The notes below the pieces were generated by a model. It made no database searches. It was not told the DNA's origin and saw nothing but the letters and a program-made list of their open reading frames with translations. DNA of 64,000 nt, taken from IMG/VR virus record IMGVR_UViG_2675903313_000009; one strand, 5' to 3'. Positions 10,318 through 62,603 of the stretch are shown here, one piece after another. Source of the stretch: a virus (lineage: Duplodnaviria; Heunggongvirae; Uroviricota; Caudoviricetes). The position numbers and the translations under genes were made by a program. Within the stretch, counting starts at the first letter, position 1. The number at the start of each line of letters is the position of its first letter.

Positions 10318-10806
10318 TTATTTAACATCACACTTTCTAAGTTTTTCTATTTGTTCTAATTTTTCATGATCATCATTTAGATTTCCTTCGACTATCTCCG
10401 TTTCAAGTTTGCTGATTAGCATGTTAAGTGCGTTGTAGTTATTGCATTTTACTTTGTAGGCGTAGTATGACCTTGTCCCTGGTTTTTGTACACCCATATC
10501 ATTAAAGTTAGAGCTTAAAGTATAACCTTCAAGTTCAACCCCTTTTATTGTTGGAAGAATTATATTTAATGGTTCTAATTTAAATGGGTAGATATAAATA
10601 TGTGATATGAAGTACTCTTCTGAAGAGATTTTCTTCATGTCTTTTGTGATTGAAGCTGAATATTTACGGTTCCGAGTGATATAAAATTTTGTGCATTTGT
10701 ACAACTCTAGGTTGAATAGATAATATTTATCTTTAAAAAGAACATCTTTTCCATGTGATATTTTATGTCGTAAAGAGTTAATTATTTTGTTTATGGAAAT
10801 ACTCAT
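10318..10806 (-). CDS. Hypothetical protein, Lys-rich
   Basis: 162-aa ORF abutting downstream gene; low GC. Confidence 0.5.
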   Translation of the reverse strand: MSISINKIINSLRHKISHGKDVLFKDKYYLFNLELYKCTKFYITRNRKYSASITKDMKKISSEEYFISHIYIYPFKLEPLNIILPTIKGVELEGYTLSSNFNDMGVQKPGTRSYYAYKVKCNNYNALNMLISKLETEIVEGNLNDDHEKLEQIEKLRKCDVK

Positions 10807-10951: not shown

Positions 10952-11551
10952 TTAATCATTCAATAATCTATATTTTCTTTTGATTAAATCTTCACCTTTT
11001 TTGGTGAACACAAAACCAAATTGCGATTTTTTGTTCAGCCTAAGTACTCTGTTATCCAACGCATCGGTTGATGGAATCAATGTTTGATCATCTATCCAAT
11101 TAAGTAGCGTAAGAAAGTTCAGCAGCCTCAACGTTGTTGTGCGAAGCTCTTTCGATATATTTTCAATGCTGGCAATTCGTCTTTCTTTTTTCTCAGGTGG
11201 TACAGATAATTGTTCTTGAGGTTTCGTGGATAGATAATCAATTTCGTTTGCTGCATCGAATGATATGTGTGGCGTAATTTTGCTAAAAAAGCCTTTCGCT
11301 GACTCACTTGATAATAAACCAGACCTATTCATATCGTTTGTTATTCTGTACAGGAGTGGACTGTGTTTCATTTCAGGATAACGTTGATAAAAGTTAAGCA
11401 ATTCAAAAGCAGCATTAGCGCCAACAAGAAAATCAGAAGGATCGCTGACTTTCCAGAAAGAATGATTTTTCTTAGCGCCAGTGGTGTCAACAAATGATAA
11501 TTCTTTTAACCAACTCATGATGTGCTCCTTTCTAACAAGTGAGCACATCAT
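10952..11551 (-). CDS. Hypothetical protein
   Basis: 199-aa ORF, low GC. Confidence 0.5.
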   Translation of the reverse strand: MMCSLVRKEHIMSWLKELSFVDTTGAKKNHSFWKVSDPSDFLVGANAAFELLNFYQRYPEMKHSPLLYRITNDMNRSGLLSSESAKGFFSKITPHISFDAANEIDYLSTKPQEQLSVPPEKKERRIASIENISKELRTTTLRLLNFLTLLNWIDDQTLIPSTDALDNRVLRLNKKSQFGFVFTKKGEDLIKRKYRLLND

Positions 11552-42200: not shown

Positions 42201-43150
42201 CGGCGTTAAGCGGCTCTACTCAAGGCACTGCTGGCATTCAAATGTATGAGGCGTACAACAATAGCTACCCGACCACGTATGGCAACGTATTGCACATGAA
42301 AGGTGCGAGTGCTGCTGGTGAGAGCGAGTTGCTTATTGGCTGGAGTGGTACGAGCGGTGCACATGCGCCAGTTTTCATTCGCTCACGAAGAGATAACACA
42401 GGTGCAGCATGGTCAGCGTGGGCGCAGGTATATACCGCTAAGGATTCAATCCCTGGTGTGAATACAACTGGTAATCAGAACACTACTGGTAATGCCGCAA
42501 CCGCCACAAAATTGCAGACAGCAAGGAAAATTGCTGGTGTGGCGTTTGATGGCTCTGCCGATATAACTTTGACTGCGGCTAACCTTAATGCTTACACGAA
42601 AACAGAGGTAGCAAACCTTCTAAGTTCCTATGCAAGCAGATCATCACTGACAGGCTATAGTGGCAACCTGGATATTGTTGCTGAAACACTGGTTGTCAAA
42701 TCAGGCGGTAGTGGAGGGTTTGCTATATGGGATATTGGCACAACTACTAGCGGTGCCAATATGTACATTGATCCAAACCCAGGTATCAATACAGTTTGGC
42801 GTTCAACGTCTTCAAGGCGCTATAAAAAGGATATTGAAACATTACAAGATCGATATGCTGATGAACTTTTGTCATTAAGACCTGTTTGGTATCGTTCAAT
42901 TTGTCGAGGTGACCGAAAGAATTGGGGGTATTACGGCCTTATTGCTGAAGAGGTTGGTGAGATTGCCCCGCAATATGTCCATTGGCGTGAACCAACAAAT
43001 AATGATTCTCCAGAAGATATTTCCTCAAATGGTATGGTCGCTGAAGGAGTGATGTATGAGCGTTTGGTTGTACCACTCATTCATCATATTCAGCAATTGA
43101 CCAAAAGGGTTGAGGAGCTTGAAACGAAGTTAAATTCACCTAAAGAATAA
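39236..43150 (+). CDS. Long tail fibre protein with Ala/Ser-rich region and C-terminal intramolecular chaperone (peptidase S74-like)
   Basis: Ala/Ser-rich low-complexity block; three internal repeats containing [13 protein letters not shown]; C-terminal segment resembles auto-cleaving fibre chaperone domains. Confidence 0.8.
41203..42570 (+). repeat. Three dispersed internal repeats in tail fibre gene
   Basis: [33 protein letters not shown] near 41215, 42055 and 42480. Confidence 0.7.
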
Positions 43151-60125: not shown

Positions 60126-60200
60126 GATGGTGTAGCTCAGCGGTAGAGCAGTTGGCTGTTAACCAACTGGTCGGTGGTTCGAATCCACCCACCATCGCCA
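60126..60200 (+). tRNA. tRNA-Asn (anticodon GUU)
   Basis: Cloverleaf folds by hand; anticodon loop CUGUUAA; CCA encoded; not the E. coli Asn tRNA sequence. Confidence 0.85.
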
Positions 60201-60205
60201 ATTTA

Positions 60206-60292
60206 GGGGAGTTAGTCCGTAGAGGTAGCGGTGTAGACTGTAAATCTACTGTCATGGCGACTCGGGTGGTTCGACTCCATCACTCCCCACCA
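60206..60292 (+). tRNA. tRNA-Tyr (anticodon GUA), long variable arm
   Basis: Anticodon arm gtaga-CUGUAAA-tctac; acceptor ggggagt/actcccc; CCA encoded. Confidence 0.75.
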
Positions 60293-60296
60293 AATT

Positions 60297-60372
60297 GCCG
60301 GTTTAGCTCAGTTGGTAGAGCAGTCGCTTTGTAAGCGAATGGCCAGCGGTTCAAGTCCGTTAACCGGCACCA
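60297..60372 (+). tRNA. tRNA-Thr (anticodon UGU; assignment tentative)
   Basis: Acceptor gccggtt/aaccggc; anticodon loop UUUGUAA with one mismatch in stem. Confidence 0.65.
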
Positions 60373-60462
60373 ACACAACAGGTAAGAGCATTGGGCGAAT
60401 CGGCGATACTGACCCACAAGGCCGTAAATCGATAGAGTCAGACCAGTGCTCTTACCGTTGTG
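60373..60462 (+). other. Long stem-loop H2 directly after tRNA-Thr
   Basis: acacaacaggtaagagcattgg pairs with ccagtgctcttaccgttgtg. Confidence 0.45.
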
Positions 60463-60562
60463 ATGAATGCACAGGCTGATGTGCCGCAACTACAGTAGTG
60501 CGCGCTTTGCGGGGCTTGCTACAACCCTGTGTCGGAGTTCAGTACCGACCATCACAATAGCT

Positions 60563-60649
60563 GGAGAGTAGGGAGCATGGTGCTCAAGCGGTCTTGAAAA
60601 CCGTTCCATTGTGCAAACGATGATGGTTCGATTCCATTACTCTCCGCCA
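60563..60649 (+). tRNA. tRNA-Ser (anticodon UGA), long variable arm
   Basis: Acceptor ggagagt/actctcc; anticodon loop CUUGAAA; CCA encoded. Confidence 0.8.
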
Positions 60650-60803: not shown

Positions 60804-60826
60804 AAAGGGGCTTCGGCCCCTTTTTT
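60804..60826. terminator. Bidirectional rho-independent terminator
   Basis: aaaggggc ttcg gcccc tttttt, A/T runs on both sides. Confidence 0.9.
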
Positions 60827-60841
60827 GTTGAACAGTGCAAT

Positions 60842-62104
60842 TTACTTTACATAGTCGCCCAGTTTTAATATTTCGCGCTTATATTCTTTAACCATGCTAC
60901 TGGATTCAGTATAAATTCGATTTAAAAGATTATCGCTATCTTTATTCTCATTTATCTTAATGAGTGATAATTTAAATTCATAGTCATCAAATGCCACAAT
61001 CAAATGGTGGCCTGGGATTATATCTTCGTCACTCTTGAAGTATATATCTTCAAGTATGTAATCTAGTTGATTAGATTTTCTTTTCTCGATGTAATCTTCA
61101 GCCATAGCTATTACATCATTCCTGTCATTTAACCTGTTTTTTTCGGAAGGCACATCTTCGTAATGTTGCACGATTGAACAACCAATAAGGCGTGGGATGT
61201 AAACGTCAAAATGAGTAACTCTATCATTCGCGGTTTTAAGTTGTTCCTCAAAGTAGTTTCTTACATGTAAAGGCAACTTCTCAAAGTAATCATTAATTAT
61301 AGGAGAACAAGGAGTTTTATAATTCATAAGAACCGACGGTACGAGCTGTGGGCGTCGAAACATCCAGTCCCTTTTAACGTCCGATGGAACATAATAACTT
61401 TTAATGATATTATCAAAATAATTTATCATTCGAGATTTGAATATTTTATTGAATCTAAGGTTTATGAATGTATCCAGATAAGGCATATTTGAATAAGCAT
61501 CATCAAAAAATATTTCATCATTGAAAAAATCATATTTATTCAATAAACAACACAGTTTTTCCGAATTAATATGTTCACAATAATCGATTTTTAATCCAAA
61601 GATAGCAATGATCAACTTCATCTGAGGTGGGATTTTAAAAATTAATTGTGATACATACGCTCTTTTTTCCTTGAGACATTCCCCATCAATATAAAATGAA
61701 CTATCCACATACTCAAATATATTAATAATATGCTTCACATACTGTATTACCTCATGCTGTTTTACCAATGGGTAATAGAGTCTATGTAACTCATCGCTGT
61801 TTAAATTAATTTTGTGTTTATCGATAATTTGTTTTGCAAGAAGACATAACGCATCATGTTGATTTAATAAGGAATCAAACCATTGTTTAAATGCACTCTT
61901 TCGCATTTCGAACAATGATTCAGTTGTTAATTGAAGGGCTGAAAAAGCTGCTTTTGCACTTTTTCTCGCTTCGTAGGCATTCCATGCTGTTGCTATAAAA
62001 GCAAATGCTGTAGCCAATGTTCCAACAGTTTGACCATTTAAAACAACCCAATCCCAAAAAATAACGGTGAGCAGTAGTATAATAATGAAAATTAAAAAAG
62101 GCAT
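60842..62104 (-). CDS. AT-rich membrane-anchored protein of unknown function
   Basis: 420-aa minus-strand ORF; two N-terminal hydrophobic helices; GC far below neighbours; own terminator. Confidence 0.6.
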   Translation of the reverse strand: MPFLIFIIILLLTVIFWDWVVLNGQTVGTLATAFAFIATAWNAYEARKSAKAAFSALQLTTESLFEMRKSAFKQWFDSLLNQHDALCLLAKQIIDKHKINLNSDELHRLYYPLVKQHEVIQYVKHIINIFEYVDSSFYIDGECLKEKRAYVSQLIFKIPPQMKLIIAIFGLKIDYCEHINSEKLCCLLNKYDFFNDEIFFDDAYSNMPYLDTFINLRFNKIFKSRMINYFDNIIKSYYVPSDVKRDWMFRRPQLVPSVLMNYKTPCSPIINDYFEKLPLHVRNYFEEQLKTANDRVTHFDVYIPRLIGCSIVQHYEDVPSEKNRLNDRNDVIAMAEDYIEKRKSNQLDYILEDIYFKSDEDIIPGHHLIVAFDDYEFKLSLIKINENKDSDNLLNRIYTESSSMVKEYKREILKLGDYVK

Positions 62105-62278
62105 GTATGTATTTCACTCTACTAACTATAAATTATTAGGCTAATGTTAACCAAACAATGCCTTAATTAATAGATTGATCGAGGCTTTAATAGCTTTATA
62201 ATGCAGACTGCAAAGATAAGTATGCACATACCTATCTTCTTTGTAAGTAAAGTTGCATATCAATTCTATGAGGTAACA

Positions 62279-62524
62279 ATGACGATCACTATCTACGGAC
62301 GAGATAACTGCTCATACTGCAAACGTGCGGTCGAGCTGGCGAAGCAACTAAAGGGACATGGCTACGGTGATTATGAGTACATCGACATCACCACTGCCGG
62401 TATCAACAAGGAAAAACTAAGTGAAATTGTTGGTAAACCGGTAGAGACTATCCCCCAGGTGCTGATCGATGGCCAGCCGATTGGCGGATACACAGAACTG
62501 GCTGCATACGTCAGCACCCTCTGA
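62279..62524 (+). CDS. Glutaredoxin (GrxA/NrdH-like)
   Basis: CSYC active site in YGRDNCSYCKRA; GKPVETIPQ and GGYTE motifs resemble E. coli glutaredoxin 1 from memory. Confidence 0.8.
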   Translation: MTITIYGRDNCSYCKRAVELAKQLKGHGYGDYEYIDITTAGINKEKLSEIVGKPVETIPQVLIDGQPIGGYTELAAYVSTL

Positions 62525-62529
62525 TTTTA

Positions 62530-62552
62530 ACGGCTCACAGGAGCCGTTTTTA
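62530..62552 (+). terminator. Rho-independent terminator after glutaredoxin
   Basis: Stem acggctc/gagccgt then TTTTT. Confidence 0.85.
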
Positions 62553-62603
62553 TTCCCACCAAACTCACTCCCATTTCCCTTAAAATTCAAAAAACAACGT
62601 CAA

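Follow-up and report, generated by a model that had tools for sequence, protein, structure and literature searches.

A putative AbiC/AbiP-related, membrane-anchored protein in a variable cargo slot of an SSU5/pHCM2-like phage-plasmid of Escherichia coli

The gene at positions 60842–62104 (minus strand) of a 64,000-nucleotide stretch of virus record IMGVR_UViG_2675903313_000009 (the whole stretch analysed is termed the window) encodes a protein that, as judged by profile homology, belongs to the AbiC/P (putAbiC) family, in a divergent and so far unannotated branch of it found on enterobacterial phage-plasmids; by nucleotide identity, the window itself is an SSU5/pHCM2-like phage-plasmid of Escherichia coli. 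Based on the homology to AbiC and AbiP and on the genomic context, we favor, at a probability of roughly 60%, the reading that the gene specifies a single-protein, membrane-anchored defence of the abortive-infection (Abi) type, which the phage-plasmid would express in the lysogen. An abortive-infection protein had been among the proposals of a first-pass annotation made from the letters of the window, and profile homology to PF16872, AbiC and AbiP together with the shared architecture lends support to it.

The gene and its relation to AbiC and AbiP

The open reading frame (ORF) of the abiC/abiP-like gene starts with ATG and comprises 420 codons, in exact agreement with the coordinates, strand and length given at first pass; at its composition, where ~7.6% stop codons are expected, a 420-codon open frame would arise by chance with a probability of ~1e-14 (arithmetic). 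Its GC content of 31.7%, compared with 45.8% for the window, lies 3.6 standard deviations below (SD of same-size windows 3.9%) and makes it the lowest-GC stretch within the 64 kb, which bears out the strong AT-richness originally noted; the GC content at third codon positions is 0.29 versus 0.52 in the ligase and integrase genes. The ratio of non-synonymous to synonymous substitution rates (dN/dS) amounts to 0.26 when an allele of 98% identity is compared and to 0.32 with one of 86%, with values of 0.14–0.20 for the N-terminal and 0.39–0.41 for the C-terminal half. From its intact homologues and these ratios we conclude that the gene is real and under purifying selection, and the pattern is that of a functional gene in which the membrane-proximal module is under constraint and the distal half evolves fast. 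The same protein (100% aa, 99.9% nt) is carried by plasmid pTW10722_119 (NZ_CP035843.1), where it is named 'hypothetical protein' (WP_001116203.1), and its sole match in PHROGs is PHROG 18168 (E 6e-217), of unknown function.

With the window protein as query, phmmer returned seven clusters only among 5.8 billion proteins. A profile of five sequences nevertheless led to PF16872-bearing proteins at E-values of 6e-35 to 1e-20, and when 1.84 billion representatives were scanned exhaustively with a profile, 68 relatives emerged, with the PF16872-bearing ones at 1.9e-35 to 7e-21; a third, word-indexed homologue search with a 15-sequence profile contributed three new sequences only. Relative to the PF16872 cut-off of 22 bits, two relatives of 31–32% identity, P0007 and P0008, obtain 18 and 22 bits, and more distant ones reach 28–37 bits. 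PF16872 is matched by 35 of the 50 aligned relatives (best 1.4e-11), the PADLOC models AbiC and AbiP by seven and five of the 50, respectively. When 16 Pfam-negative sequences of the subfamily were compared with 15 PF16872-positive ones by hhalign, a probability of 100% and an E-value of 6.5e-51 were obtained over 386 columns, and the homology therefore extends over the whole protein rather than merely the 80-residue Pfam core. The first-pass annotation had seen no recognisable motifs in the large domain, a statement that holds for direct database scans but not for profile searches. It had also suggested a remote-homology search, which leads to the PF16872 (putAbiC) and PADLOC AbiC and AbiP proteins; homology to a characterised non-defence membrane protein, which it had named as speaking against its proposal, was not found. 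Pantoea and Erwinia relatives bear the PGAP name 'putative phage abortive infection protein'. No Lactococcus plasmid was reached by tblastn when P0039, an AbiC-positive relative, served as the query, so that the link to lactococcal AbiC is made through the Pfam and PADLOC models only. Scanning the PDB by sequence with the window protein gave no significant match, and no literature on putAbiC/PF16872 was found under those names. Papers on 'Abi_C' (SadR, PMC13590631; Taranis, 10.1101/2024.07.02.601686) were set aside, as they concern the HEPN C-terminal domain of AbiJ and not AbiC; the HEPN motif Rx4-6H is not conserved in the family of the window protein.

The architecture of the predicted protein is that of an N-terminal membrane hairpin followed by a large helical domain. 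Putative transmembrane helix 1 (codons 2–22, 62039–62101, minus strand) is strongly hydrophobic, with a Kyte-Doolittle 19-residue mean of up to 2.83, and is followed by a moderately hydrophobic, Ala/Thr-rich segment (codons 26–56, 61937–62029, minus strand) that contains helix 2 and the juxtamembrane motif ATAWNAYEARKSAKAA. For helix 2 (~26–44), a hand sum gives a Kyte-Doolittle value of ~1.05, and no 19-residue window past residue 7 exceeds 1.6. The two N-terminal hydrophobic helices described at first pass were thus recovered, one strong and one moderate, and both are helical in the AlphaFold2 model, for which a 50-sequence alignment was used and in which helices at residues 2–15 and 17–22 precede one continuous helix of residues 24–96. 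The full-length model is all-alpha with an N-terminal hairpin, at a predicted local distance difference test score (pLDDT) of 88.1 and a predicted template modelling score (pTM) of 0.76; residues 97–420 modelled separately gave a pLDDT of 91.8 and a pTM of 0.86. After helix 2 stands EARKSAKAA with further K/R, six K/R in all, and the remaining ~375 residues are therefore predicted to be cytoplasmic. Residues 26–56 form the most conserved segment, with invariant columns and a mean pairwise identity of 70% in the subfamily and 47% among the 50 relatives. The PF16872-equivalent region (codons ~115–200, 61505–61762, minus strand) aligns with residues ~128–230 of relatives, where PF16872 maps, and is succeeded by a variable C-terminal half (codons 201–420, 60845–61504, minus strand), which is a candidate specificity or sensor part. 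Mean pairwise identity drops from 46% for residues 1–200 to 22% for residues 201–420 in the subfamily and from 36% to 14% among the 50 relatives, and many distant profile matches stop near position 210. A Foldseek search of the model against BFVD gave nothing at E ≤ 1e-3, and no structural relative was found in the PDB.

Lactococcal AbiC (Prf; pTN20), a protein of 344 aa, likewise is the product of a single, plasmid-borne, AT-rich gene and combines two N-terminal hydrophobic helices with an all-alpha domain; the window protein is related to it by profile-profile homology through relatives that match PF16872 and PADLOC AbiC. It differs in scoring below every curated threshold, in its length of 420 aa, in the mostly substituted polar residues of the PF16872 core and in its carrier, an enterobacterial phage-plasmid instead of a lactococcal plasmid. 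AbiC lowers the production of major capsid protein, and structure comparison gave no functional prediction for it (PMC13064643), nor did it for the window protein. AbiC and AbiP, which have been grouped as 'AbiC/P', share a membrane anchor and an alpha-helical domain, with two N-terminal helices in AbiC and one in AbiP (PMC13064643). AbiP is represented in PADLOC by a shorter profile (223 positions). It halts the replication of phage DNA and prevents early transcripts from being switched off, and both its membrane anchor and its binding of nucleic acids (RNA and single-stranded DNA) are required (PMC13064643, PMC12184496). As its toxicity is triggered by the phage major tail protein (PMC12184496), AbiP can serve as a mechanistic template, that of an essential anchor and a phage structural protein as trigger. 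The window protein resembles AbiP in being membrane-anchored with a helical domain that has the putAbiC core, and five of the 50 relatives match PADLOC AbiP over the same region; unlike the RNA- and single-stranded DNA-binding AbiP, its soluble domain is acidic (pI 6.2) and without conserved basic residues. A further comparison is with the enterobacterial proteins to which PGAP gives that same name of 'putative phage abortive infection protein', for example those of Citrobacter (P0013) and Pantoea agglomerans (NZ_CP143400.1), which belong to a 430–470 aa class, have the N-terminal hairpin with ATAW..EARKSAKAA and are alignable over ~390 columns, but which show 19–27% identity only, lie outside the phage-plasmid slot and retain the polar set LLEQHN, SPYMRxLYHLLK, RSxIxND and FDFFEH that is mostly replaced in the window protein.

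The phage-plasmid and its cargo slot

The 8 kb around the gene are 95–97% identical to Escherichia phages CMS-2020a and Cyrano and 79% to SSU5, and the gene region is 99.9% identical to pTW10722_119, a 119.8-kb, non-mobilizable plasmid of E. coli TW10722. Among 5,426 complete E. coli genomes, 40 harbor the allele, on a plasmid in all cases, and the gene is intact and full length in 39 of them. As originally remarked, the gene stands on the minus strand among plus-strand genes; no other minus-strand gene lies between the plus-strand blocks on its two sides, one with DNA ligase, small ORFs and four tRNAs, the other with glutaredoxin and integrase. On the left, the slot is bordered by tRNA-Ser(tga) (60563–60649, plus strand; ARAGORN, Rfam), the last gene of a tRNA block (Asn, Tyr, Thr and Ser, 60126–60649; ARAGORN), on the right by a GrxA-family glutaredoxin gene (62280–62524, plus strand), identified from its ORF and the annotation of identical plasmids. 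Between these lies a replaceable cassette of 1.44 kb (60827–62266) that consists of the gene and its 5' region and is delimited by blastn breakpoints: homology to Cyrano breaks at 60826/60827 and resumes at 62267, and the breakpoints relative to the related locus L002 are similar (~60829 and ~62244). In Cyrano the place of the cassette is taken by 376 bp that contain another plus-strand gene, and CMS-2020a, with Cyrano the closest of the relatives deposited as phages, likewise has other DNA there. Neither the DNA nor the protein of the gene occurs in any of 50,697 phage records, among them Cyrano and CMS-2020a, which share the backbone. These data show the gene to be accessory cargo of a temperate element. 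Its initial classification as a moron, i.e., cargo, agrees with the precise junctions at 60827/62266 relative to Cyrano, the deviant GC content and the opposite strand with a terminator hairpin.

Homologues were detected by tblastn in 138 plasmid records of PLSDB (24–100% identity), from Escherichia, Klebsiella, Enterobacter, Salmonella and Citrobacter; 119 of these plasmids are non-mobilizable and most measure 105–115 kb. As 636 plasmids share the flanks, roughly one fifth bear a homologue. Klebsiella, Enterobacter and Salmonella elements have 34–40% identical homologues in the same slot and the same divergent orientation, here with the tRNA block on one side and a phoH-gp49-grx operon on the other, and the alleles that share the slot across Escherichia, Klebsiella, Enterobacter and Salmonella are 24–55% identical, all with a GC content of 31–38% versus 44–54% in the flanks. 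One E. coli element has flanks 97–98.6% identical to those of the window and yet a slot allele of only 32% identity at the protein level, which is a case of allelic replacement rather than gradual divergence. No convincing direct repeats were seen at the cassette borders, and when the cassette was searched for a partner element, neither an antitoxin ORF nor ToxI-like tandem repeats nor known small RNAs turned up. Prophage morons and defence hotspots such as those of P2/P4 (PMC13586616) are comparable in their fixed slot, alternative cargo, deviant composition and opposite orientation. In contrast to those hotspots with their many unrelated systems, the present slot mostly swaps alleles of one family or stays empty; in relatives, YafO toxin pairs occupy the adjacent slot between grx and integrase.

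This second variable slot (62502–62603, between the glutaredoxin stop codon and the integrase) adjoins the first and is empty in the window. A YafO-family toxin gene with a partner of 175–205 aa fills it in related phage-plasmids (L002 2450–3478, L010 1249–2286, L011 1152–2083), a 555-nt minus-strand gene in phage Cyrano. The allele P0008 (31% identical) was also encountered on non-phage plasmids rich in IS1, IS91 and IS110 (L004–L006); its locus retains 305 nt of the tRNA-Ser/terminator flank of the phage-plasmid at 95% identity (L004 5316–5620), which suggests capture of this allele from a phage-plasmid. The tRNA block of Cyrano, otherwise 96–97% identical, is without tRNA-Tyr (window 60206–60292), and in SSU5 tRNA-Asn alone is left; the set of tRNAs is therefore variable, too. 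Rfam scores tRNA-Ser as tRNA-Sec right at threshold (47.3 vs 47 bits), probably because of the long variable arm. SSU5 (42525–42761, L013) is without the whole tRNA–cobT block (abiC-like gene, grx, integrase and helix-turn-helix (HTH) regulator), and the entire tRNA–cobT region therefore is accessory within the SSU5 supergroup. The second-lowest GC content of the window (~33.5%) is found at the minus-strand ORFs 10318–10806 (162 aa) and 10952–11551 (199 aa), which may be further cargo.

At the 3' side, a terminator hairpin, AAAGGGGC-TTCG-GCCCCTTT (60804–60823; terminator scan), lies 18 nt beyond the stop codon of the abiC-like gene. It has a G+C stem and a favorable fold on either strand, the energies being -19.5 and -20.7 kcal/mol and the z-scores -2.7 and -3.5; as it is framed by an A-run and a T-run, it is plausibly bidirectional and probably terminates the tRNA block on the plus strand and the abiC-like gene on the minus strand. 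The hairpin is part of the conserved tRNA backbone common to Cyrano and not of the cassette. The same backbone includes, directly after tRNA-Ser, a 20-nt inverted repeat (60652–60671/60710–60729) with 95% complementarity and a 38-nt loop. The other predicted terminator (62529–62548) follows the glutaredoxin gene, so that of the insulation by terminators assumed at first pass the 3' part stands, and none was found on the 5' side of the abiC-like gene. Its postulated own upstream region does exist in the form of 175 nt of divergent intergenic DNA (62105–62279) with a minus-strand promoter candidate, a plus-strand promoter-like site and a palindrome, yet minus-strand promoter candidates are only weak; the plus-strand site (62175–62202) is a good one and would serve glutaredoxin. 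The near-perfect palindrome AGATAAGTATG-CA-CATACCTATCT (62214–62237), located between the latter site and the glutaredoxin start, occurs once in the window and is a candidate operator. A related palindrome upstream of grx or phoH-gp49-grx is kept in the E. coli, Klebsiella, Enterobacter and Salmonella elements.

Proposed mechanism and rival explanations

According to the model we propose, the lysogen would make the protein from its own weak promoter, and the protein would sit in the inner membrane with its large domain in the cytoplasm, where the Ala-rich helix of residues 24–96 may oligomerise. The variable C-terminal half would act as the sensor that recognises a product of an incoming competitor phage, comparable to the major tail protein in the case of AbiP, and the conserved hairpin plus the Ala-rich stalk as an oligomerising, membrane-linked effector module. 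Activation might then block phage development after entry, either as AbiP does, at the level of DNA replication and of the transcription switch from early to middle, or as AbiC does, at the level of capsid protein. The cost would be the infected cell, the gain the protection of the clonal hosts of the phage-plasmid. As the conserved polar residues are mostly replaced, effector chemistry may differ from that of canonical members and not involve nucleic-acid binding. Carrying this idea further, the phage-plasmid subfamily could be a functionally new AbiC/P offshoot that would have abandoned the polar site of canonical members and act purely at the membrane. There, the invariant, Ala-rich second transmembrane and juxtamembrane helix would form oligomers and thereby a pore or lesion that depolarises the cell, and the hypervariable C-terminal half of a helical domain without structural precedent would be an allele-specific receptor for competitor structural proteins; this version is speculative and we give it a small chance only. 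If it were true, allele swapping at one slot would retarget immunity across Enterobacteriaceae.

Several observations weigh against an abortive-infection function. The window protein itself has no match in Pfam, NCBIfam or PADLOC at E ≤ 1. Thirty PF16872-positive relatives keep a polar set at 87–100% (motifs GH, SPYMRxLYHxLK, RSxIxND and FDFFEH). At the R, H, K, R, N, D, N and H positions of this set the window protein has other residues, and these positions vary across the phage-plasmid subfamily; what the protein retains of the putAbiC core is only the hydrophobic scaffold, Q82-H83, Y122, Y150, S152 and F193-F194. With most canonical polar residues replaced (equivalents at positions 116, 120, 124, 127, 128, 131, 155, 156, 160, 161, 169, 184, 185, 195 and 196), the binding or catalytic site of canonical members may have been lost here. 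The hydrophobicity of helix 2 is only marginal, the mildly acidic soluble domain is unlike a general nucleic-acid binder such as AbiP, and the minus-strand promoter candidates reach 8 of 12 matches at best (TTGGTT-18-TATAGT, with the -35 element at 62154 and the -10 element ending at 62125). In addition, an AbiC-like protein of Lactococcus, 38% identical to AbiC, proved inactive against the tested phages (PMC11381338), and homology is therefore no guarantee of activity. AbiC is not mentioned in the text of a survey in which clinical phage-plasmids were screened for defence systems (10.1101/2025.09.12.675607); for the SSU5 group, this absence is consistent with either a missed gene or a non-defence gene.

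Superinfection exclusion (Sie) at the envelope, the other function suggested at first pass, would mean that the protein blocks DNA injection or receptor use by incoming phages, SSU5-like ones included, and does so without killing the cell. Membrane anchoring and prophage-borne cargo status would suit such a role, as would the finding that the membrane and juxtamembrane helix is the most conserved part; the loss of the putAbiC polar residues could even indicate that a cytoplasmic mechanism has been abandoned. Known Sie proteins (T4 Imm, P22 SieA, lactococcal Sie2009, Cor/Llp) are small and unrelated, however, which makes classical exclusion less likely for a protein of 420 aa without Pfam or PHROG match to any known Sie family. 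Of its residues, ~375 are predicted to be cytoplasmic owing to the K/R after helix 2, the periplasmic loop would comprise a few residues only, and the homology points to Abi proteins that act after phage entry. Taken together, we regard exclusion as unlikely.

The gene might instead serve the phage-plasmid's own biology, be it lysis or membrane timing, post-segregational killing, a function as maintenance toxin, or counter-defence. It is, after all, a membrane protein gene without structural relative, located in an accessory/lysogeny block beside the integrase, an HTH regulator and, in relatives, the YafO toxin pair. On the other hand, it is dispensable, being absent from Cyrano, CMS-2020a, SSU5 and about four fifths of the related plasmids, it does not lie in a lysis cassette, and its own cassette contains no antitoxin partner; moreover, alleles so extremely divergent at one fixed slot would rather be expected of conflict genes, and the homology is to Abi proteins, so that we consider a role of this kind improbable as well. 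The least probable of the alternatives, to which we give very little credence, is that the cassette represents inactive or silenced hitch-hiking DNA, an acquired AT-rich gene with no current role. H-NS silencing in E. coli typically targets DNA of very low GC content, and the weak promoter and the lost canonical polar residues would fit. Against this stand the integrity of the gene in 39 of the 40 E. coli genomes that carry it, the dN/dS of 0.26–0.32 with stronger constraint on the N-terminal half, and syntenic intact homologues across four genera.

Implications for phage-plasmids and the AbiC/P family

Clinical E. coli, Shigella, Klebsiella and Salmonella commonly carry SSU5/pHCM2-like phage-plasmids, which are usually called cryptic or defence-poor. 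Our data point to an unannotated AbiC/P-like family in about one fifth of such plasmids in PLSDB (138 versus 636) that escapes the current thresholds of Pfam, PADLOC and NCBIfam. If the gene turned out to be inactive or otherwise employed, it would be just another hypothetical cargo gene. With a confident model, a natural allelic series and a tractable host, the E. coli member would make the mechanism of AbiC/AbiP, open for three decades, testable. The finding is unsurprising in kind, but it is useful as an E. coli entry point to this family and draws attention to a defence candidate overlooked so far in an element of wide clinical distribution.

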